52,191 nucleotides of DNA from assembly GCA_945788095.1 (NCBI GenBank), contig CALZKW010000001.1, positions 1 through 52,191 on the forward strand. The letters are read 5' to 3'. Positions 4,267 through 52,092 of the stretch are shown one piece after another. The DNA is from an uncultured Prevotellaceae bacterium. GTDB lineage: Bacteria > Bacteroidota > Bacteroidia > Bacteroidales > Bacteroidaceae. The notes under the pieces are model-generated. The model saw only the letters and a list, made by a program, of their open reading frames with translations, was not told where the DNA came from and made no database searches. The stretch's first letter is position 1. Each line of letters begins with the position of its first letter. The translations under genes and the position numbers were made by a program.

Positions 4267-4407
4267 GGGAGGAATGCCCAATCCTATCCAGGAGGAATGC
4301 CCAATCCTATCCGGGAGGAATGCCCAATCCTATCCGGGAGGAATGCCCAATCCTATCAGGGAGGAATGCCCAATCCTATCAGGGAGGAATGCCCAATCCT
4401 ATCCAGG
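4267..4407. repeat. Tandem repeat, 6 units of 23 bp (GGGAGGAATGCCCAATCCTATCC)
   Basis: AATGCCC recurs at 4273, 4296, 4319, 4342, 4365 and 4388, exactly 23 bp apart. Only the junction triplet varies (cca/ccg/cag). The array lies in the divergent GH43/GH29 intergenic region. Confidence 0.95.
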
Positions 4408-4585
4408 AGATTTCGAGTGATAGAATAAGATTTATCTGTCGGATGAACCTAAATGTCAATCCGAAGGATCTCCGTAGAATCAGGGGAGAGGAAAATAGTT
4501 TACTTTCTGAGGAGAGGGGACCTGTTCTCCCCCACCCTATGGATGAAGAAGCAGGGGAAATGTTGGCGGGATGGATTTTTTGGTT

Positions 4586-5919: not shown

Positions 5920-5925
5920 AGGAAT

Positions 5926-5986
5926 AAGACCAATTAGACCAATTAGGCCAATTAGGCTAATTAGACCAATCATACCAATTACGATT
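5926..5986 (+). repeat. 9-bp tandem array (TAGNCCAAT), about 6.5 units, filling the GH29-cutC spacer
   Basis: Reads AAGACCAAT TAGACCAAT TAGGCCAAT TAGGCTAAT TAGACCAAT CATACCAAT TACGATT, followed directly by the ATG at 5987. Confidence 0.95.
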
Positions 5987-6754: not shown

Positions 6755-6818
6755 CAACAACAAAAATCTTCCGTTCCTTCCGTTGTTAATCAAGCCCCCC
6801 CAGGAGGATGCTTTTTGT

Positions 6819-9896: not shown

Positions 9897-9922
9897 TCAC
9901 TCATCATCATCCCCTGATACAG

Positions 9923-9955
9923 GCGCTGCACACTCCGGTGTGCGGCGCTTTTTTT
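9923..9955 (+). terminator. Intrinsic terminator
   Basis: Stem GCGCTGCACAC / GTGTGCGGCGC (one G-U pair) with loop tccg, then TTTTTTT. Confidence 0.85.
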
Positions 9956-10003
9956 GAGACTCTCCCCCCGCCCCCCAGAAGGGAGGGGGCCGAGGGCGAT
10001 TTT

Positions 10004-10096
10004 AGATATGGGTTTCATCGCCACAGGATATGGGTCTCAGCACCATCAGGATATGGGTCTTGTTGCGCTGAGATATGGGTCTTTTTCTGCTGAGAG
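10004..10096. repeat. Four-unit array, period 22-23 bp, core GATATGGGTCT plus variable spacer of about 11 nt
   Basis: ATATGGG occurs at 10006, 10028, 10051 and 10073. Confidence 0.9.
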
Positions 10097-10195
10097 GTGG
10101 GGGGCAAAGTGTTAGTGAATAGTGAATAATACTTAATACCTTTAATACTGGTAATGTAGAGGAGAAAGCACATAGCACGCCCCAACAAGCCATTC

Positions 10196-10590
10196 ACGGC
10201 CATTTTCAGCACGGAAACATACTGTTGTAGGCCTACAACGGCCATTTTCAGCACGGAAAAATGCTGTTGTAGGCCTACGACGACGATTTTCTGCACGAAA
10301 AATGCTGTTGTAGGCCTACAACGACGATTTTCTGCACGGAAACATATTGTTGTAGGCCTACAATGACGATTTTCAGTGGAGAAACATATCGTCGTAGGCC
10401 TACAACGACGATTTTCAGTGGAGAAACATATCGTCGTAGGCCTACAACGACGATTTTCGGTGGAGAAACATATCGTCGTAGGCCTACAACGACGATTTTC
10501 GGTGGAGAAACATATCGTCGTAGGCCTACAACGACGATTTTCGGTGGAGAAACATATCGTCGTAGGCCTACAACGGACATTTTCGGTATT
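10196..10590. repeat. 42-bp tandem array, about 9.5 units, each unit carrying an AGGCCT-centred palindrome
   Basis: AGGCCT occurs at 10229, 10271, 10312, 10354, 10396, 10438, 10480, 10522 and 10564. Unit sequence is GATTTTCGGTGGAGAAACATATCGTCGTAGGCCTACAACGAC. Units 1, 3 and 4 carry the perfect 16-bp palindrome GTTGTAGGCCTACAAC; unit 2 has one mismatch. Confidence 0.95.
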
Positions 10591-10743
10591 GCGTTAAGGA
10601 ACATAGCATGTCTCAGCGGGGCATATATGGTCTGGCTGCGCAGGTTGTATAGTCCTTATAACTTCCTTTTAACTTCTTTTCAAAAAAAAGCCACGCACCG
10701 AGGGGAGAGTGCGTGGCTATTCGTATGTGGGAGGGGGAAGTAC

Positions 10744-13242: not shown

Positions 13243-13305
13243 TGGGTTTATTGGGCTTATTGGGCTAATTGGACTAATTGGACTAATTGGGCTAATCCGG
13301 CTAAC
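13243..13305 (-). repeat. 9-bp tandem array (sense TAGNCCAAT), 7 units, filling the tex-transglutaminase spacer
   Basis: Plus strand reads TGGGTTTAT TGGGCTTAT TGGGCTAAT TGGACTAAT TGGACTAAT TGGGCTAAT CCGGCTAAC. Confidence 0.95.
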
Positions 13306-13315
13306 TGCTCCTCTC

Positions 13316-15448
13316 TCACAGTTTCATCGAGAGGGAGATGCGGTCGCGGTCGAGATCGACATCGAGCACCTTGACCATCACCTGCTGGTGGAGGCTGACC
13401 ACCTCGGTGGGGTCCTTGACGAAGCGATTGGCCAGTTGGGACACATGCACGAGGCCCTTGGTGTGGACACCGATGTCGACAAAGGCGCCAAAGTTGGTGA
13501 TGTTGGTGACGATGCCGGGGAGCACCTGTCCGGGACGCAGGTCGGCGGGCTCGTGCACCGTGGGGTCGAAGGCAAAGGCCTGGAGCGGTGTGCGCGGATC
13601 GCGACCTGGCTTGTCGAGTTCGGCCATGATGTCATTAAGCGTGGGCAGACCCACCTCGTCGCTGACGTAGCGCTGTATGTCTATCTGCTCGCGCAGGGCC
13701 TTGTCCTTGAGGAGCTGCTCCACGGTGCACCCCAGGTCCTTGGCCATCTGCTCCACGAGGGCATAGCGCTCGGGATGCACGGCACTGTTGTCGAGAGGCT
13801 GGTCGCTGCCCTCCACACGGAAGAAGCCCGAACACATCTCGAAGGCCTTGGCACCCATGCGGGGCACCTTCATCAGTTCGCGGCGCGACTTGAAGCCGCC
13901 ATGCTCATCGCGGTAGTTGACAATGTTCTGGGCCAGGGCAGGACCGAGACCACTGACATAAGTGAGCAGGTACTTGCTGGCAGTGTTGACATTGACGCCC
14001 ACACGGTTGACACAGTTGACCACCGTCTGGTCGAGCGAGCGCTTAAGCTCTGCCTGGTTGACATCCTTCTGATACTGGCCCACGCCGATGCTGCTGGGAT
14101 CTATCTTGACCAACTCGGCCAGGGGGTCCATCAGGCGGCGACCGATGCTCACGGCACCACGCACGGTGACGTCGTGGTCGGGGAATTCCTCGCGGGCCAG
14201 TTTGCTGGCCGAGTAGATGCTGGCACCGTCCTCGCTCACGACATAGACCTCCACGCCATCGGGCAGGTCGAGATGGTTGACAAAATCCTCCGTCTCGCGG
14301 CCTGCCGTACCATTGCCGATGGAGATGGCCTCTATCTTGTATGCCTCCACGAGGTTCATAATAGTGCGCATGGCCTTGATGCGCTCTGCACGGGGTGGAT
14401 GGGGGAAGATGGCTTCATTGTGGAGCAGGGCGCCCTCGCTGCTGAGGCAGACCACCTTGCATCCGGTGCGGAAACCGGGGTCGATGGCCAGTACGCGCTT
14501 CTGGCCCAGGGGCGACGACATGAGGAGCTGCTCGAGATTGCGCACAAAGATGCGTATGGCCTCCTCGTCGGCACGCTGCTTGCTCAGGGCGGCAAACTCG
14601 GTCTCGATGCTGGGCAGGAGCAAGCGCTTGTAGCCATCCTGCACGGCTTCCTCGACGATGGTGGATGCCTCGCCACGACCGTGCACGAAATAGTGGGCCA
14701 CCTTGCTGACAGCCTGCTCGTCGTCGATGGTGATGCTCAGGCGCAGTATGCCCTCGTCCTCGCCTCGGCGCATGGCCAGGAGGCGGTGTGAGGTGCAGCG
14801 GTGGAGGGGTTCGCTCCAGTCGAAATAGTCGCGAAACTTCTGTCCTTCCTCCTCCTTGCCCTTGACGAGGCGGCTCACGATGGTGGCACCGCGGCGGAAG
14901 AAGCCGCGCACCGCATTGCGGCTGCGCTCGTGCTCGCTGACGCGCTCGGCGATGATGTCCTTGGCGCCCTGGAGCACCTTGTCCACGGTGTCGATGCCTT
15001 TATCGGCGTTGATGTAGCGCTCGGCTATCTGATGGATGGGCTGTCCCTTCTGGCTCTGTATGATGTTGGCCATGGGTTCGAGTCCTGCCTCGCGGGCCAC
15101 TTGGGCTCGTGTGCGTCGCTTCTGCTTGTAGGGCAGGTAGATGTCCTCGAGTTCGGTGGCATCCCATGTCTGGTCGATGCGCTGACGCAGTTCGTCGGTC
15201 ATCTTGTCCTGTCCCTCGATGGCGGTGATGATGGTGGCCTTGCGCTTCTCGGTCTCCTCGAGGCGCTCCACGGCCAGACTGATCTGTGCTATCTGCACCT
15301 CGTCCATGCCTCCGGTAGCCTCCTTGCGGTAGCGGCTGATGAAGGGTATGGTGGCTCCTTCCTGGAGCAGGGCGATGGTATTTTCAACGCCGCGTGCATT
15401 GAGTCCCGTGCTCTTGGTGACGAGCTCAGTGAGTAGTTCTATGGTCAT
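13316..15448 (-). CDS. tex: Transcription accessory protein Tex (S1 RNA-binding domain protein)
   Basis: 710 aa. N-terminus has TIPFISRYRKEATGGMDEV. YqgF-like and HhH regions are present, and the C-terminal S1 domain reads GIVTNITNFGAFVDIG...GLVHVSQL. Confidence 0.92.
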   Translation of the reverse strand: MTIELLTELVTKSTGLNARGVENTIALLQEGATIPFISRYRKEATGGMDEVQIAQISLAVERLEETEKRKATIITAIEGQDKMTDELRQRIDQTWDATELEDIYLPYKQKRRTRAQVAREAGLEPMANIIQSQKGQPIHQIAERYINADKGIDTVDKVLQGAKDIIAERVSEHERSRNAVRGFFRRGATIVSRLVKGKEEEGQKFRDYFDWSEPLHRCTSHRLLAMRRGEDEGILRLSITIDDEQAVSKVAHYFVHGRGEASTIVEEAVQDGYKRLLLPSIETEFAALSKQRADEEAIRIFVRNLEQLLMSSPLGQKRVLAIDPGFRTGCKVVCLSSEGALLHNEAIFPHPPRAERIKAMRTIMNLVEAYKIEAISIGNGTAGRETEDFVNHLDLPDGVEVYVVSEDGASIYSASKLAREEFPDHDVTVRGAVSIGRRLMDPLAELVKIDPSSIGVGQYQKDVNQAELKRSLDQTVVNCVNRVGVNVNTASKYLLTYVSGLGPALAQNIVNYRDEHGGFKSRRELMKVPRMGAKAFEMCSGFFRVEGSDQPLDNSAVHPERYALVEQMAKDLGCTVEQLLKDKALREQIDIQRYVSDEVGLPTLNDIMAELDKPGRDPRTPLQAFAFDPTVHEPADLRPGQVLPGIVTNITNFGAFVDIGVHTKGLVHVSQLANRFVKDPTEVVSLHQQVMVKVLDVDLDRDRISLSMKL

Positions 15449-17934
15449 TGCTTGATGATTTTACGGTTGTTGGTGATATAGATATGTCCATCGGTCAGCT
15501 GTGTGGCGGGCATGCCGTTGAGCTGATACGTGGGAGCGGTGTGCTGCTGGAGTGTGAGGGGGGCGATGGCCGTCATGGGTGTGCGGCTCTGGTAGACCTT
15601 CTGGCGTGTGCCGTCGTAGCCCACAGCCATGATGTAGGCAGCGGCGGTGTCATCACCCTCCCAGCGCTCATTGGGGTAGAGCACCTGTGTGGAGGTGTGT
15701 GGACGCTCACTGCCAAGGCCGTGGACGGTGATGCGAATGAGACGGTTGCAGACGTCGTAGGTCTCATAGGCCACGGCATTGCGCACGATGCTGTGATCGA
15801 TGGTCACCTTGGCGTCGGCGATGCTGTGTGTGCATCCCTCGCCCAGTGTCTGGGGCACGGTGAGGGGGAGTGCGTCGCGATAGATGGGATAGTTGTAGGC
15901 CGTGATGTAGTTGATCTCCTCGCCCACTTCGGGGTAACCCTTGGAGCACACGTGGGCCTTGAGCTGGTCTATCATGCCTTGGTTGATCTTGACCCACCCC
16001 GAGGTGTAGTCGCCGATGTACTCGCTGATGGGGCGGAGCATGCCGGCGCGCTCGAAGAAGGGCAGGAGATTGAGCCCAGTGCTGTCGCAGGCTATCTTCA
16101 TCCAGTTGACCTGCTGCTGTCCGGGGGTGGCATAGGTGGAGAGGTAGCCGGGCGTGGTGCGGAGGCTCTCGATGACCATGGGGATGATGTCGGGACACTT
16201 GCCGGCCTTGGTGCCCCACAGGCAGAGCTGCCAGAAGGGCACGAGCTTGACGAAGACACTGTGGGAGCGCTTCACGGCCATGGTGGTGCCCACGTAGCGG
16301 CCCTCGTAGTCGTAGTCGTCCACCTCGATGGGGGGCTGCTTGGAGGCATCCCACTCAGGGTCGTCCTGCAACTGCCATGCCACGCCCTTGCGGACGCCCT
16401 CCTCGAGGTAGGTCTGGATGCTGCCGCCGCGCATCTTCTCATATTCGCCCTGGCCGGCCTTGCCATCCTCGAGTCGGAGGTCGAGTTCGGTGCCATAGGC
16501 GTGAAGCTGACACCATGCGGCATAGATGTTGTTGGAGGTTTCGCCGAGTCCGGGCCAGAGGAATCCGTAGGCTATCTGATTGTTGTGGCCCCACTCATGA
16601 CCGACCACCCAATAGTCGAAATTCTCTATCGAGGGCTTCATGATGAATCCGAGGTAGGGCATGTCGCAGTAGGAGCCCGACCCGTCGGCAGCGATGCCCT
16701 TGCGGTCGGAGGCATAGAAGAGCTGGCGGTTGCGCACCTGGCGTCCGTAGCGGAAGAGTCCGAGCATGTCGCGCTGTCCCCACTGTATCTGTTCGTAGAT
16801 GTCGGTGAGGAGCTCGATGTCGTCGGGGCAGTAGGTCTTCCAGTGCCACAGGGGGAAGGCCAACTGGGCATGCTCGGTGCGCACGATGAAGATGGTGTAG
16901 TCCTTGGGCTGTCGGGCCAGCATCTGCTGCCAGTCGGCATTGGTCATGGTGTCCTTGTCCCAATAGCCTCGCACGGGGGCTGCCATGAAGTGGAGCTTGA
17001 CCTTGGGCGCGTGCTTGTAGTTGGGGGTGTAGTAGTCCACGAAGACGTTGCCCTCGCTCTGGGCCGTGATGAGGTTGATGCCATTCTTGAGCTGGTAGGT
17101 GGTCTCTGCCTCACTGTATCCCCATGCCTTGATGGTCAGCCCCACGGGGTCGTCGGCGATGCCCGAGACGGCCACCAGCATGCTCTCGCCCTCCTTGAGG
17201 TAGATGCCCGAGGGGTTCTCCCACCTGTTGTAGGGGTCCTTGGTGCCGAGCTCGCGCTGCAGGTCGTAGACGGGCTGGTAGGCCTCATACTGGCCCACTC
17301 GGAAACGGCCGTAGTCGCTGCCCTCGGCCAGCATGCAGTCCACGAGGGCCTTCACGTCGGGGTCGTCGATGCCCTCGCTGCTGGTCACCTCGGGGCGGAG
17401 TACAGAGTAGACATCATCAGAGAAGTAGGTCTGATAGAGCTGGCTCTTCTCTGTGTCGAGGGCATAGGCCTCCACCTCGGCTGCGGATGCCTTCTCGTAG
17501 TAGCCGTAGCGCACGGTGAAGCGCACACGGCGTATGTCGACGCCCTTGGGGATGGGGAATTCGGCGGGCTGGCTGCCATCGTCAAACTTGTCGTCGAAGA
17601 AGGTGACCCAGTCCGTCTCGCCCGATGCACTGACGGAGTACTGCACCTCCACTTCGTCCCAATAGCCCTCGGGGTTGCCGTCCTGGCGGGGCACGTAGCG
17701 CACCATATCGACGCGCTGTCGCTCGGGCAGCGTGAGCGTCAGTATAGCGGGATCGTAGGAGGCTATCTGCCCCGTCTGCCACACGGTGGATGCATCGCCG
17801 TCGATGACATTAGAGGCGGGGAATCCCGTGGCGGCCTTGTTGCTCTGCGCCTTCGAGAAGGCCACACGCTTGAACTGGGCCATCGCCGTGGCCGCAAGAC
17901 ATATCAGGAGGATTGTGGTCAGTGCTCTTTTCAT
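15445..17934 (-). CDS. M60-like (enhancin-type) zinc metallopeptidase with N-terminal F5/8 type C domain and T9SS CTD
   Basis: 829 aa with signal peptide MKRALTTILLICLAATAMAQ. Discoidin-like NVIDGDASTVWQT. HEXXH motif in VVGHEWGHNNQ. C-terminal YQLNGMPATQLTDGHIYITNNRKIIKQ. Confidence 0.85.
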   Translation of the reverse strand: MKRALTTILLICLAATAMAQFKRVAFSKAQSNKAATGFPASNVIDGDASTVWQTGQIASYDPAILTLTLPERQRVDMVRYVPRQDGNPEGYWDEVEVQYSVSASGETDWVTFFDDKFDDGSQPAEFPIPKGVDIRRVRFTVRYGYYEKASAAEVEAYALDTEKSQLYQTYFSDDVYSVLRPEVTSSEGIDDPDVKALVDCMLAEGSDYGRFRVGQYEAYQPVYDLQRELGTKDPYNRWENPSGIYLKEGESMLVAVSGIADDPVGLTIKAWGYSEAETTYQLKNGINLITAQSEGNVFVDYYTPNYKHAPKVKLHFMAAPVRGYWDKDTMTNADWQQMLARQPKDYTIFIVRTEHAQLAFPLWHWKTYCPDDIELLTDIYEQIQWGQRDMLGLFRYGRQVRNRQLFYASDRKGIAADGSGSYCDMPYLGFIMKPSIENFDYWVVGHEWGHNNQIAYGFLWPGLGETSNNIYAAWCQLHAYGTELDLRLEDGKAGQGEYEKMRGGSIQTYLEEGVRKGVAWQLQDDPEWDASKQPPIEVDDYDYEGRYVGTTMAVKRSHSVFVKLVPFWQLCLWGTKAGKCPDIIPMVIESLRTTPGYLSTYATPGQQQVNWMKIACDSTGLNLLPFFERAGMLRPISEYIGDYTSGWVKINQGMIDQLKAHVCSKGYPEVGEEINYITAYNYPIYRDALPLTVPQTLGEGCTHSIADAKVTIDHSIVRNAVAYETYDVCNRLIRITVHGLGSERPHTSTQVLYPNERWEGDDTAAAYIMAVGYDGTRQKVYQSRTPMTAIAPLTLQQHTAPTYQLNGMPATQLTDGHIYITNNRKIIKQ

Positions 17935-17959
17935 AGCTTACATATAATATATGGTGGGG

Positions 17960-18158
17960 AGGGGAGTACTCCATAGGGGGGGGCAATAGAGTACTTAATA
18001 GAGTGTCAATGGAGTACTCCATCTCGAGCAGAGCGCTCTATTGGTAGGAAGGAGAGCGCTCTGGTGGTGGGGAGCAGAGCGCTCTGCTTGATGCATGCGA
18101 TGCGCTTAGTATGGTGCAAATGATGCGCATTGCACGGGGAAGGTACTATGCGCATCAT
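17960..18158. repeat. Array with period of about 23 bp carrying nine short palindromic cores of three types
   Basis: GAGTACT occurs at 17964, 17989 and 18012. GAGCGCTC occurs at 18031, 18054 and 18077. ATGCGC(AT) occurs at 18100, 18123 and 18148. The array lies in the 230-bp spacer upstream of the M60 gene. Confidence 0.85.
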
Positions 18159-18164
18159 GGTGTT

Positions 18165-19010
18165 TTACTGCTTGTAGAACTTCTTGGTCATAAACTCCTG
18201 CACACGCTTGCCAATCTTCTGCTGAATGGCGCCGCCCTCGGTGGGATTCATCGATGCAGTGGCCTTGATGTAGCGCTGCACGATGTCCTGGCTGCAGATC
18301 TCGATGCCGAGTTTGAGGTCGTCGGTGGTGAATGCGGGATAGCACATGCGGAGAGTGGTCTCGGGCAGAGATTCGGTGAGATAGGTCTTGATCTTGGCCA
18401 TCTTCTCGTTGCTCTCGTCGAGTTTGTCGTCGATATCCTCGAGGGCAGCACCAGCGCTGAGCTTGAAGTACTCATTGAAGAGGGTGCGGTAGTCCTCGGG
18501 GCAGTCCACCTTCTCCACGGGGGGCAGTTCGCCACCCATAGCCACGGTCATGGTGGCGGTCATCACCTCGGTCATCATGGGGGTCATGTTCTCGGTCAAC
18601 TTTTTGCAGCTCTCAAGGAACTTCTTGCCCTTGGGACTCTTGTAGACGGCGAGGAGCTCTGTAAGCTCCTCCTCGGAGAAACCATCCTCGAGAGTGGGAG
18701 CCACATAGTCGACCATATCGGTGACGAACTCGTCGCTGTCGATGTAGGGAGCGATGACCTCGTCCATCATGCCGTTGAGCATATCGCCGACTTGCTGCAG
18801 GTCGTCGCTGCTCTGGCCGCTTAGGCCGGCCATCTGCTGCAGGAGGCCACCGAAGGCCTGCTTGATGCTCTCCTTCATGCTCCTGGGCGAGAAGTTGGAG
18901 GTGCCGAGCTCGATGAGCTCACGTGTCTTCTGCTTGTAGGAATCACTCTGTGCCATGGTGCTTAAGCTCATGCACATCAGCATGGCGAGCGACAGGATTG
19001 TCTTTTTCAT
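18165..19010 (-). CDS. DUF2059-like secreted protein
   Basis: 281 aa with signal peptide MKKTILSLAMLMCMSLSTMAQ. Contains FSEEELTELLAVYKSPKGKKFLES, which resembles the DUF2059 motif. Confidence 0.7.
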   Translation of the reverse strand: MKKTILSLAMLMCMSLSTMAQSDSYKQKTRELIELGTSNFSPRSMKESIKQAFGGLLQQMAGLSGQSSDDLQQVGDMLNGMMDEVIAPYIDSDEFVTDMVDYVAPTLEDGFSEEELTELLAVYKSPKGKKFLESCKKLTENMTPMMTEVMTATMTVAMGGELPPVEKVDCPEDYRTLFNEYFKLSAGAALEDIDDKLDESNEKMAKIKTYLTESLPETTLRMCYPAFTTDDLKLGIEICSQDIVQRYIKATASMNPTEGGAIQQKIGKRVQEFMTKKFYKQ

Positions 19011-19041: not shown

Positions 19042-19090
19042 TTAACAACGGAAAGAACAGAATTATATCTTTCTGTTTGTTCCGTTGTTA
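19042..19090 (-). terminator. Long hairpin of the AACAACGGAACAAACAGAA family, downstream of glnN
   Basis: TTAACAACGGAAAGAACAGAA / TTCTGTTTGTTCCGTTGTTA, a stem of about 20 bp with 2 mismatches. There is no clear U-tract. Confidence 0.5.
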
Positions 19091-19111: not shown

Positions 19112-19133
19112 CCGTTGTCTGTTGTCCGTTGTC
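19112..19133 (-). repeat. Heptamer repeat (sense GACAACG GACAACA GACAACG) just after the glnN stop
   Basis: Plus strand reads CCGTTGT CTGTTGT CCGTTGT C. Confidence 0.85.
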
Positions 19134-21357: not shown

Positions 21358-21393
21358 TTGGGCTAATTGGACCAATTGGATTAATTGGACTAA
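21358..21393 (-). repeat. 9-bp tandem array (sense TAGNCCAAT), 4 units, in the aguB-glnN spacer
   Basis: Plus strand reads TTGGGCTAA TTGGACCAA TTGGATTAA TTGGACTAA. The last unit overlaps the aguB stop codon. Confidence 0.9.
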
Positions 21394-22265: not shown

Positions 22266-22275
22266 TGTTTATTGA

Positions 22276-22311
22276 TTGGACTAATTGGACTAATAAGGCT
22301 AATTGCCCCCC
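22276..22311 (-). repeat. 9-bp tandem array (sense TAGNCCAAT), 3-4 units, in the aguA-aguB spacer
   Basis: Plus strand reads TTGGACTAA TTGGACTAA TAAGGCTAA TTGCCCCCC. Confidence 0.85.
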
Positions 22312-23493: not shown

Positions 23494-23538
23494 ATTGGGC
23501 TTATTAGGCTAATTGGGCTAATTGGGCTAATCCCTAAA
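23494..23538 (-). repeat. 9-bp tandem array (sense TAGNCCAAT), about 5 units, in the GH125-aguA spacer
   Basis: Plus strand reads ATTGGGCTT ATTAGGCTA ATTGGGCTA ATTGGGCTA ATCCCTAAA. It is flanked on both sides by CCTAAAA-type heptamers. Confidence 0.9.
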
Positions 23539-25000: not shown

Positions 25001-25081
25001 ATTGGGCTAATTGGGCTAATAAGACTAATTGGGCCTATTGGGCTAATAAGACTAATTGGGCTAATCGGGCCTATCATGCTA
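25001..25081 (-). repeat. 9-bp tandem array (sense TAGCCCAAT), 9 units with 27-bp higher-order periodicity, filling the GH92-GH125 spacer
   Basis: Plus strand reads ATTGGGCTA ATTGGGCTA ATAAGACTA / ATTGGGCCT ATTGGGCTA ATAAGACTA / ATTGGGCTA ATCGGGCCT ATCATGCTA. Confidence 0.95.
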
Positions 25082-27577: not shown

Positions 27578-27650
27578 GGGCATACGAAAAATCGCGTCGC
27601 ACACCTTGAACTTCATAAAAGAGATGGGTAACAGCACAAAAAAAAATATG

Positions 27651-27779
27651 ACTGTCCGGGGAAATCAAGACCCTGTAAGAGTCGCTATAGAGTAGCGTAG
27701 GGCGTCAACCCTACGTATGGCACTACCCCCTATCCTTTGGCCCTGTAAGGGCCTCCTAACTAATACGTCATGAAAATAT
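27651..27779 (+). repeat. Structured dispersed element R of about 130 nt, copy 1 (candidate ncRNA or MITE)
   Basis: Closely similar to 33382-33512, with only scattered substitutions and small indels. Hairpins: GACCC-tgtaa-GAGTC (27669-27683), CGTAGGG-cgtcaa-CCCTACG (27696-27715), GGCCC-tgtaa-GGGCC (27739-27753). Confidence 0.8.
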
Positions 27780-29549: not shown

Positions 29550-29600
29550 GTTTTTAGGTTTTAGGGCGCTTCGCCTTTGAGGTTTTAGGTTGGTCTGCTC

Positions 29601-29645
29601 GTCAACAGAATGAACGGAGTTTTTTCTGTTTGTTCCGTTGTTAAC
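29601..29645 (-). terminator. Imperfect hairpin of the AACAACGGAACAAACAGAA family, downstream of the POT transporter gene
   Basis: CAACAGAATGAACGGAG / TTCTGTTTGTTCCGTTGTTAA. The pairing is imperfect. Confidence 0.35.
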
Positions 29646-33088: not shown

Positions 33089-33145
33089 GACAACAGACAA
33101 CGGACAACGGACTACGGCTGCGGACTGTTGACCTCCTGACTCACA
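33089..33145 (+). repeat. Heptamer repeat GACAACA GACAACG GACAACG GACTACG and degenerate follow-on units, directly after the SulP stop
   Basis: Period 7, read directly from the sequence. Confidence 0.85.
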
Positions 33146-33213: not shown

Positions 33214-33381
33214 TGGGGGCGGCGAAGCAAAGTTCACATAGCACGCCCCGCGCTCGGCATCCCGAAGGCAAAATTGGGCTATGAACTGCTGCCCCTTCGG
33301 GGCGTATTAGAGTCTATTTTTCTTTATTGATGATTTTTCTACCCCCCTACCTTTTTAGTTATCCCCCCACCTTATATTATT

Positions 33382-33512
33382 ACTGTCCGGGGAAATCAAG
33401 ACCCAGTAAGGGTCGCTATAGATTAGCGTAGGGCGTCAACCCTACGTATGGCATTGCCCCCCCTATCCTTTGGCCCTGTAAGGGCCTCCTGACTAATACG
33501 TTATGAAAATAT
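33382..33512 (+). repeat. Structured dispersed element R, copy 2
   Basis: Same orientation as copy 1. Hairpin 1 is perfect here (GACCC-agtaa-GGGTC). Confidence 0.8.
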
Positions 33513-37724: not shown

Positions 37725-37777
37725 GTCCGTTGTCTGTTGTCTTCCAACCGTTGTCCGTAGTCCGTTGTCTGTTGTCT
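37725..37777 (-). repeat. Heptamer repeat (sense GACAACR/GACTACG), directly after the CE12 stop
   Basis: Sense strand reads TAG-tA GACAACA GACAACG GACTACG GACAACG GTTGGAA GACAACA GACAACG GACATTG. Confidence 0.85.
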
Positions 37778-49966: not shown

Positions 49967-50170
49967 ATGAAAGGCAAGAAGGACAAAAACGAACAGGTGA
50001 CCACCCCCACAGAGCTCCCCGCAGCCATTCCCACATCTACCACTCCCGAAACAGAGACTAAAGAGAGCGCCCCCACGGTCAGCACATCTACCGACTTCAA
50101 GCGCGGAGCCAAGGTGATCTTCCAGGATGACGTGGTGCCCCGCCCATTTCAGACTACGGACTACGGATGA
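49967..50170 (+). CDS. Small hypothetical protein (67 aa, T/P/E-rich)
   Basis: Codon usage is GC3-biased like neighbouring genes. I recognised no homology. The 3' end runs into the GACTACG heptamers. Confidence 0.35.
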   Translation: MKGKKDKNEQVTTPTELPAAIPTSTTPETETKESAPTVSTSTDFKRGAKVIFQDDVVPRPFQTTDYG

Positions 50171-50249
50171 CAGACTACGGCTGTTGTTCGTAGTCCGTAG
50201 ATTATTTATTGTTGACCATTGACTGTTGACCTTCGACTTTTGACCAATT
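50152..50249 (+). repeat. Heptamer repeats GACTACG x3 plus hairpin, then TTGACNN x5
   Basis: GACTACG GACTACG GATGACA GACTACG. Hairpin GACTACG-gctgttgtt-CGTAGTC. Then TTGACCA TTGACTG TTGACCT TCGACTT TTGACCA. Confidence 0.85.
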
Positions 50250-51991: not shown

Positions 51992-52092
51992 AAGACCCGG
52001 GTCCTACACCCTACAGGACCCGGGTCTTGTCGTAGTAATACCCGGGTCCTGTCGCGTCAAGACCCGGGTCTTTTTGCAAAGATACCCGGGGG
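51992..52092. repeat. Five-unit array, period 22-23 bp, palindromic core (G)ACCCGGGTC
   Basis: ACCCGGG occurs at 51995, 52018, 52040, 52062 and 52084. The unit layout and parts of the spacers resemble the 10004-10096 array. Confidence 0.9.

Follow-up and report, generated by a model that had tools for sequence, protein, structure and literature searches.

Introduction

REP/BIME elements are clusters of short palindromes located in the untranslated spacers of co-directional genes, a few nucleotides past a stop codon, where their RNA stem-loops can protect the upstream mRNA; the individual REPs are imperfect palindromes of 20–40 nt, which share one consensus, are scattered over hundreds of sites with their orientation alternating, and are linked to RAYT transposases. 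The class of constant-size, variable-sequence repeats was reportedly defined in a J Bacteriol paper of 2020 by Subirana and Messeguer; these repeats are called enigmatic, and we know of no function or generating mechanism for them. Tandem units of 20–23 nt occur in many bacterial groups, their length corresponds to two helix turns, and a protein polymerising on the DNA or small RNAs have been proposed as their roles (Subirana and Messeguer, IJMS 2021, PMC8161180). BrickBuilt from Porphyromonas gingivalis is a 23-nt minisatellite/MITE (Klein et al. 2015, PMC4596501): it makes up one family, AGAYCATARTATCCTCTCRTRTG, at 19 loci, with a leader, a tail, terminal inverted repeats, and strain-variable copy number, and it is strictly intergenic at 49–591 nt from genes, with long stem-loops predicted and an effect on neighbouring transcription proposed (PMC4596501).

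The array analyzed here was located in a 52,191-nt stretch of DNA (the window, taken at its full length) from an uncultured Prevotellaceae bacterium. It was a minisatellite particular to its locus and repeated every ~23 bp, each unit being composed of a 10- to 16-bp perfect palindrome plus a ~12-bp linker, and it belonged to the "constant size (20–23 nt), variable sequence" intergenic class, which was common in the present Prevotellaceae lineage: it had nine units at a mean step of 23.0 bp, it was accompanied by several same-size unrelated arrays, and its location was non-coding.

Locus and genome context

The window (56.5% G+C) carried an ordinary chromosomal gene set of the Bacteroidales/Prevotellaceae type, which included genes for glutamine synthetase type III, Tex, GH92, GH125, GH43, and GH29 enzymes, an agmatine deiminase-type protein, ETF, and acyl-CoA dehydrogenase; no transposase genes were found in the window, and no Y1 transposase was present among its 29 proteins. 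A search of plasmid and phage sequences with the array gave no match. Identical copies of the locus came from pig-gut assemblies, one of which, ERZ8974994, is that of the MAG "uncultured Prevotellaceae bacterium SRR3178346_bin.9". The array lay between two minus-strand genes, with the TAA stop of the DUF2059 gene and the ATG of the M60 gene as the limits of the spacer and 6 nt from the DUF2059 stop codon to the first palindrome arm. The features of the locus were as follows:

15445–17934, minus strand: downstream gene, coding for an M60 peptidase of 829 aa that carries an F5/8 type C domain and the signal peptide MKRALTTILLICLAATAMAQ
17935–18164, minus strand, 230 bp: whole spacer from the DUF2059 stop to the M60 start (sequence read directly)
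17935–18164, minus strand: array of nine units on a 23-bp lattice, followed by a 28-nt A/U-rich leader (lag-23 self-identity 0.51; RNA fold)
17935–17962, minus strand: leader CCUCCCCACCAUAUAUUAUAUGUAAGCU, C/A/U-rich and mainly unpaired, directly 5′ of the M60 AUG (centroid fold)
17963–18020, minus strand: block 1, with AGTACT cores (inverted repeat; block fold −19.1 kcal/mol)
18024–18091, minus strand: block 2, with AGCGCT cores (TRF period 23; direct and inverted repeats; fold −27.9 kcal/mol)
18099–18158, minus strand: block 3, with TGCGC(A/T) cores (inverted repeat; block fold −22.8 kcal/mol)
18165–19010, minus strand: upstream gene, coding for a 281-aa DUF2059 protein

The array filled the 230-bp spacer, as the initial annotation had stated, and positions 17935–18164 were the complete gap between the two genes. 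It was non-coding, since it occupied a stop-to-start spacer and its period of 23 was not a multiple of 3; a 50-aa ORF at 18006–18158 (minus strand) was rejected as a chance frame, the 23-bp period disrupting any reading frame. The next-closest M60 homologue was 55% identical. Three relatives (L020, L029, and L033) had the glutamine synthetase gene followed directly by the M60 gene, the two being separated by a normal terminator and promoter, while the present species had the DUF2059 gene and the array inserted between glutamine synthetase and M60. No orthologous spacer was found in relatives by searches with the M60 and DUF2059 proteins; the DUF2059 protein had no relatives outside its own species at E < 1e-10 in a sequence search, and a metagenome scan with this protein as the query gave no matches.

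Nine palindromes on a 23-bp lattice

Direct reading of the sequence confirmed nine dyad cores arranged in three blocks (AGTACT, AGCGCT, and TGCGC(A/T)), with dyad-centre spacings of 25, 23, 19, 23, 23, 23, 23, and 25 bp, as the initial annotation had given them; its core coordinates, which mark where the inner 8-mers or 6-mers start, were correct, and its description of a frame that is kept while the core changes in blocks of three held. The spacings added up to exactly 8 × 23 bp with a mean of 23.0, five of the eight were exactly 23, and the lattice was kept within 2 bp across 184 bp.

The three blocks were built as follows (cores given on the plus strand): (i) block 1 had GGAGTACTCC at 17963–17972 and 18011–18020 and a degenerate AGAGTACTTA at 17988–17997, its 12-nt arms 17963–17974 and 18009–18020 were 100% complementary, and its predicted fold joined the outer units and left the middle one in the loop; (ii) block 2 had AGAGCGCTCT at 18030, 18053, and 18076, its unit 18073–18088 was a perfect palindrome of 16 bp, and its 16-nt arms 18024–18039 and 18076–18091 were 94% complementary; and (iii) block 3 had a degenerate GATGCGCTTA at 18099, GATGCGCATT at 18122, and TATGCGCATC at 18147, with ATGCGCAT at 18123 and 18148, and its 16-nt arms 18120–18135 and 18143–18158 were 88% complementary and lay 7 nt apart, its two partner units having flanks that were inverted complements and not direct copies.

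The array was real and beyond chance. Its self-identity was 0.51 at lag 23, 0.40 at lag 46, and 0.35 at lag 69 over a baseline of ~0.25, and TRF reported the middle block only (18026–18086, period 23, score 87). Compared to 5000 dinucleotide shuffles, it had 7 perfect 8-bp palindromes (shuffle mean 1.05, maximum 6) and 5 perfect 10-bp palindromes (mean 0.26, maximum 4); the palindrome copies were not independent, and counting the three independent cores only gave P ~0.03–0.09. Since the core copies were not independent, the strong support for the array came from its periodic frame and from other places where this architecture was found again.

Core conservation and dyad symmetry

Three observations were new here: the contrast between cores and linkers, the symmetry-preserving differences between blocks, and the pairing capacity of two units over 11–16 nt in each block. 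The 10-bp cores were 86% identical within blocks versus 49% for the flanks (Fisher P = 5e-8, with unit pairs that were not independent). When the best unit of each block was compared (GGAGTACTCC, AGAGCGCTCT, and GATGCGCATC), five positions differed, all five of which were changed as symmetric pairs; block 2 was intermediate, with arms as in block 1 and a centre as in block 3. The palindromy was unbroken through the exact centre of the cores, the two partner units of each block were complementary beyond the core over 12–16 nt, and the unit without a partner in blocks 1 and 3 was the degenerate one. The sense-strand linkers contained 55 C and 15 G in 140 nt; sense-strand C exceeded G in 11 of the 13 co-directional spacers of the window, with one further tie, while sense-strand G depletion was not seen in the related arrays (see below) and hence was not a class property. 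The same organization of invariant columns forming one contiguous core, with near-random linkers of constant length, was displayed by the CCCGGG array (P = 0.0014) and the GATATGGGT array (P = 0.0003) of the window.

The unit number and sequence of the array were also compared between strains. The number of units was identical in six assemblies from three samples, and the copies were near-identical (99.4% overall), the differences within the array being two SNPs plus one poly-C indel, all in linkers, so that the strain comparison was informative for the stable unit number only. With its conserved cores and symmetric block differences (see above), the array bore unusually clear marks of constraint on cores that are self-complementary.

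Predicted RNA fold and probable transcription of the spacer

The sense RNA of the spacer had a predicted folding energy of −76.8 kcal/mol versus −45.7 ± 4.0 kcal/mol in shuffles (z = −7.8, a value that was partly built in, since identical palindromes in a row always fold well in silico), and the antisense strand gave z = −4.8; the two stem mismatches comprised one G-U on each strand and hence pointed to neither strand as the functional one. In the predicted sense-RNA fold, three stem-loops preceded a 28-nt leader that was mostly open and ended at the AUG. The centroid structure retained two of the three hairpins, the hairpin of block 3 being present in both MFE and centroid structures, and the leader (17935–17962) was mostly unpaired in the centroid except for one local 4-bp stem. 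Three other co-directional spacers of the window displayed the succession of stop, stable structure, open leader, and AUG, with z = −5.1, −3.5, and −3.1.

No sigma-70-like promoter was found in the spacer, and the TAnnTTTG box was absent from it; such boxes occurred at other places in the window, and in relatives one lay within ~100 nt of the ATG of almost every M60 homologue. The initial annotation, in placing the array in a promoter or 5′ leader of M60, was only half right, neither of these promoter signals being present; since the array started 6 nt past the upstream stop, the region was better called an intercistronic spacer. No intrinsic terminator (G+C-rich hairpin plus U tract) was found in 17500–18600, and genuine intrinsic terminators were located elsewhere in the window at 9921–9950 (plus strand) and 10689–10718 (minus strand). 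Because it had neither a canonical promoter nor an intrinsic terminator, the spacer was probably co-transcribed with the DUF2059 and M60 genes.

From these features, the array was tentatively interpreted as a co-transcribed REP/BIME-like RNA element with three stem-loops between cistrons, to which we assigned a probability of about 0.35. The DUF2059 gene, the array, and the M60 gene would make up one transcript, in which the identical palindromes of one block would pair together to give three stem-loops of 11–16 bp, set apart by C-rich, G-poor linkers and followed by the open A/U-rich leader before the M60 AUG. The stack of stem-loops might act as a barrier to 3′–5′ exonucleases or as a partial stop, as in enterobacterial REP/BIME, and it would thereby fix the 3′ end and the stability of the upstream message and uncouple the two cistrons in their expression. 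The 23-bp frame would be a legacy of the tandem duplications that built the array.

Inter-unit pairing in RNA, which the initial annotation had listed among several possible roles, was the favoured reading and would explain more features of the present array than the other readings, namely the perfect centres, the core identity within blocks, the arms of the partner units, the decay of the odd third unit in blocks 1 and 3, the G-poor linkers, and the position just past the stop with an open leader before the next start. Palindromy through the centre would be needed for two direct copies to form one continuous helix and would not be needed for a single-unit hairpin. The period was not explained by RNA pairing, since a period of ~22–23 bp was also found in non-palindromic, hairpin-incapable arrays (10006–10094 and 4267–4409).

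Arrays of the same period in the window and in relatives

The window contained four arrays with a 22- to 23-bp period, including the present one, and all of them had different sequences; the CCCGGG and AGGCCT arrays named in the initial annotation were both present, the latter with a longer period. The arrays other than the present one were as follows:

4267–4409: 22- to 23-bp array, non-palindromic
10005–10101: 22- to 23-bp array, non-palindromic
10214–10587: array with a period of 42 bp (AGGCCT array at 10229–10569)
51992–52090: 22- to 23-bp array (CCCGGG array at 51996–52090, with spacings of 23, 22, 22, and 22 bp)

TRF was also applied to 80 loci encoding M60 homologues from Prevotellaceae MAGs (~0.9 Mb in total). 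An isolated period peak was found at 21–23 bp with 16 arrays, plus one array each at 42 and 44 bp, while the periods of 16–20 and 24–41 bp were almost empty; each array had its own sequence. About half of the related arrays had a dyad core with a stem of at least 6 bp, versus ~5% expected for random 22-mers, and the spacers holding arrays of this class included divergent, convergent, and co-directional ones, a spread that counted against the RNA reading. Of the 18 related arrays, 5 lay no more than 450 bp 5′ of an M60 gene, which was not above the intergenic background (P = 0.88). Periodicity in relatives, to which the initial annotation had tied its reading, was accordingly present in the form of ~22-bp arrays, but these had unrelated sequences and no enrichment at M60.

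Alternative explanations

The cores might instead be operators for dimeric regulators or sites of a spacing-sensing nucleoid protein, located about two turns apart on the same face, bound cooperatively, and controlling M60 transcription, a reading that we considered doubtful but of some weight. Its fit lay in the conserved cores, the non-conserved spacers of constant length, and the 8 × 23-bp lattice, and the same layout was found in a non-palindromic array of the window (GATATGGGTCT in four copies, with clustered invariant columns, P = 0.0003); a protein polymerising on constant-size repeats was proposed by Subirana and Messeguer (PMC8161180), and predicted HTCS operators in Bacteroides are conserved direct repeats with a free spacer and a 21-bp step, that is, two turns (PMC3878776). 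A metagenome scan for AGAGCGCTCT-N11-15-AGAGCGCTCT further gave at least 120 loci, and the matches listed comprised (i) 31 TGAGAGCGCTCTCA pairs or triples on high-GC contigs, several of which were located just 5′ of an AAGGAG ribosome-binding site plus GTG start and, judged by this position, looked like operators, (ii) 36 copies of one hairpin-bearing element on human-gut contigs, and (iii) 53 others, including several true 21- to 22-bp arrays. However, three specificities would be required within one spacer, and the 52 kb held seven core or unit sequences that were unrelated to one another, the three tested cores recurring in the window at chance level only; a genome with motifs at this density would have many more of them than regulators. 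No gene for a dimeric HTH regulator or HTCS was found in the window, which had one AraC-type protein ~31 kb off, and AraC-type sites are non-palindromic; no promoter was found inside or downstream of the array, the 23-bp step drifts off the helical repeat of 10.5–11 bp across nine units, and the units of block 3, with one good and one poor half each, suited inter-unit pairing better than two dimer sites. The stacked operators for dimeric regulators suggested by the initial annotation thus had a layout matching known operators (PMC3878776) but were accompanied by no motif recurrence, nearby regulator, or recognisable promoter. Far less probable was its other suggestion, that the array is a cluster of R-M or methyltransferase targets (AGTACT, AGCGCT, and TGCGCA) acting as an epigenetic switch or decoy. 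All cores were indeed even-length perfect palindromes, their 4-bp centres GTAC and GCGC resembled known methyltransferase sites, and CATATG occurred 0 times in the window versus 6.8 expected, so that some R-M pressure may exist in the genome. The depletion outside the arrays that the initial annotation had suggested looking for was nevertheless not seen within the 52-kb window, where the hexamers outside the array stayed at Markov expectation (AGTACT, 9 versus 7.9; AGCGCT, 29 versus 26.9; TGCGCA, 27 versus 22.8), as did the window-wide counts of CCCGGG and AGGCCT, and the hexamer counts of the window gave the target-cluster claim no support. The conservation spanned 10–16 bp and thus went past a 6-bp site, the related arrays had cores with odd 1- to 4-nt centres, and a restriction-like 6-bp palindrome in every core, although truly present as annotated, is automatic in any even-length palindrome.

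The array could also be a functionless by-product, arising because the lineage tends to form and retain tandem duplications of ~22 bp in tolerant spacers, with the palindromes kept perfect by template-switch correction among neighbouring copies and not by selection, a reading to which we gave slightly less weight than to phased DNA binding. Almost every spacer of the window did have tandem repeats of 7, 9, 11, 22–23, or 42 bp; a heptamer array at 19112–19133 had gained one unit between two haplotypes that were 99.4% identical, the 4267–4409 array had six nearly identical copies, suggesting recent expansion, and the arrays were spread over all gene contexts according to spacer length. Adjacent blocks were moreover more alike than distant ones, as seen from the mixed make-up of block 2. 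Neutral decay of duplicated 23-mers, in contrast, would not be expected to give 86% identity in the cores versus 49% in the linkers, or the contiguous cores and near-random linkers of the two other arrays (see above); intramolecular palindrome correction leaves the central loop bases untemplated, yet all cores were perfect through the centre, and the unit number was invariant in the six assemblies. A purely neutral origin therefore fitted the general repeat abundance of the genome and not the core/linker contrast. Improbable, although far-reaching if true, was a sequence-independent "ruler" of ~22 bp in Prevotellaceae, perhaps in Bacteroidales, meaning a protein or DNA-processing activity that would write, read, or maintain short, often palindromic cores at two-turn spacing with free linkers; the array would then record dyad-preserving core turnover on a fixed lattice, and a mechanism would be supplied for the unexplained constant-size, variable-sequence repeats. 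The RNA element paired between units remained the preferred reading of the present array.

Comparison with known systems

The comparison with described systems was applied to repeats, operators, and RNA families. The sole Rfam 15 match of the array was at chance level (E = 0.46). CRISPR was rejected, because the "repeat" of the array was 10 bp and its "spacer" ~13 bp (versus 23–50 and 26–72 bp, respectively) and no cas genes were located in the window; TIGR-like arrays, iterons, and invertible promoters failed on repeat size, absent partner genes, or arm spacing.

The array resembled the HTCS/AraC-type operators (Ravcheev et al. 2013, PMC3878776) in its position upstream of glycan-degrading genes and in its conserved core plus free spacer, while HTCS sites consist of direct copies of an asymmetric site, in most cases two, that lie upstream of a recognisable promoter and adjoin the regulator gene; this identity was rejected, since the array consisted of nine perfect palindromes of three kinds, with no promoter and with no HTCS gene in the window. 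Tandem palindromic operators (lambda OR1-3 and LacI-type pairs) shared with the array the arrangement in sets of three operators, and the metagenomic TGAGAGCGCTCTCA pairs had the inner 10 bp in common with block 2.

REP/BIME served as the working analogy: the location of the array and its palindromes fitted, and its transcription would fit as well if the three parts of the locus are read through as proposed above. Different from REP/BIME, the cores were unique to their spacer within 52 kb and strictly periodic, with no RAYT in the window. BrickBuilt shared with the array the bacterial order, the 23-nt tandem unit, the intergenic location, and the predicted stem-loops; the present array differed from it in having unrelated locus-specific cores, no leader, tail, or terminal inverted repeats of the BrickBuilt kind, and a constant unit number across the six assemblies. 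A BrickBuilt MITE was rejected as an identity, since the array units were unlike the AGAYCATARTATCCTCTCRTRTG consensus, the array abutted both genes, and its cores were not found beyond chance elsewhere in the window.

With the constant-size repeats, the array shared a unit fixed near two helical turns, a non-coding location, a sequence that differed from array to array, and a lineage-dependent abundance. The accessible reports by Subirana and Messeguer cover Bacillus and other groups, while the present arrays came from Prevotellaceae; the array and the family-wide peak at 21–23 bp thereby extended the repeat class to uncultured gut Prevotellaceae. The signs of constraint (conserved cores and symmetric block changes) turned a descriptive curiosity into a testable element, and they carried a warning for annotation, in that palindrome clusters of this kind should not by default be taken as restriction sites or promoters. 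Palindromes and hairpins are not mentioned in PMC8161180, while the present units were conserved perfect palindromes separated by diverged linkers, with cores that changed symmetrically from block to block.

Origin of the M60 upstream region

The DUF2059 gene (18165-19010) matched only itself, with no other homologue at E < 1e-10, and in several relatives (M60-homologue loci L020, L029, and L033 from Prevotellaceae MAGs) M60 was located directly after glutamine synthetase III, an intrinsic terminator and a canonical promoter lying between them; because of these two observations, the DUF2059 gene and the nine-palindrome array in the spacer at 17935-18164 together look like a lineage-specific insertion that displaced M60's own promoter.

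Other arrays and repeat families in the window

Features of two array-bearing spacers elsewhere in the window were as follows:
4134 (-) and 4586 (+): TAnnTTTG boxes, facing outward on both sides of the 4267-4409 array
4267-4409: six near-identical 23-bp units of GGGAGGAATGCCCAATCCTATCC (95% matches)
9921-9950 (+) and 10689-10718 (-): intrinsic terminators of the convergent spacer 9897-10743
between these terminators: four-unit 22-bp array with conserved core GATATGGGTCT and random linkers; -7-like box TACCTTTA near 10143; nine-unit 42-bp array of GTAGGCCTAC hairpins

The array at 4267-4409, whose unit is non-palindromic, separated the divergently oriented GH43 and alpha-L-fucosidase genes and appears to have expanded recently. 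The 847-bp convergent spacer 9897-10743, bounded at each edge by a genuine intrinsic terminator, may be a stand-alone non-coding RNA gene built from nine stem-loops.

Elements present at more than one site in the window were also recognized:
13259-13294, 21366-21392, 22275-22292, 23512-23529, and 25001-25063: 9-bp repeat
5923-5981: variant copy of the 9-bp repeat
33089-33117 (+), 50152-50180 (+), 19112-19133 (-), and 37727-37776 (-): heptamer arrays with the sense-strand sequence (GACAACG/GACTACG)n
1039-1075, 19044-19090, 29600-29645, and 6760-6790: hairpin family AACAACGGAACAAACAGAAA ... TTTCTGTTTGTTCCGTTGTT, downstream of genes
27647-27779 and 33378-33512: two copies of a 135-bp element (92.6% identity)

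The 9-bp repeat (ATTGGRCYA on the plus strand; TRGYCCAAT / CCAATTAGN on the sense strand) occupied six separate short spacers, and all copies had the same orientation as the downstream gene and lay directly 5' of its start codon; a family of oriented microsatellites dispersed in this way points to a function within the 5' leader. Three of the four heptamer arrays lay no more than about 15 nt downstream of a stop codon, and the L082/L084 haplotype of the same species (99.4% identity) carried one additional unit in the array at 19112-19133, so copy number varies within the species. The hairpin family behaves like a dispersed element, REP-like or terminator-like, and spacers holding two of its copies folded with z = -5.1 and -3.5. 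The second copy of the 135-bp element held the sole Rfam match at gathering threshold within the window, Acido-Lenti-1 (33399-33446, minus strand, 40.9 bits).

Across the whole window, CATATG was absent (0 vs 6.8 expected), as were all four kinds of CTAG-containing palindromic hexamers; avoidance of CATATG might stem from a restriction system of this bacterium.

Palindromic elements at other loci

A strongly conserved element, about 120 bp long and with the hairpin AAAAGAGCGCTCTCCCC-N5-GGGGAGAGCGCTCTTTT between fixed flanks GAGTGGGAATAACCTCAC ... CAGTATACCAAATGTC, was present in L089, L091, L094, and about 33 further human-gut metagenome loci among the matches listed; found repeatedly, in many gut contigs, it probably represents the terminus of a mobile element. 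Two related MAGs (L010, 1318-1382, and L077) had repeated TGGCAGAAAGTCTGCCA dyads in common 5' of the M60 promoter, with differing linkers. This motif had the GG-N10-GC spacing of the sigma-54 -24/-12 element, a match that may be a coincidence.
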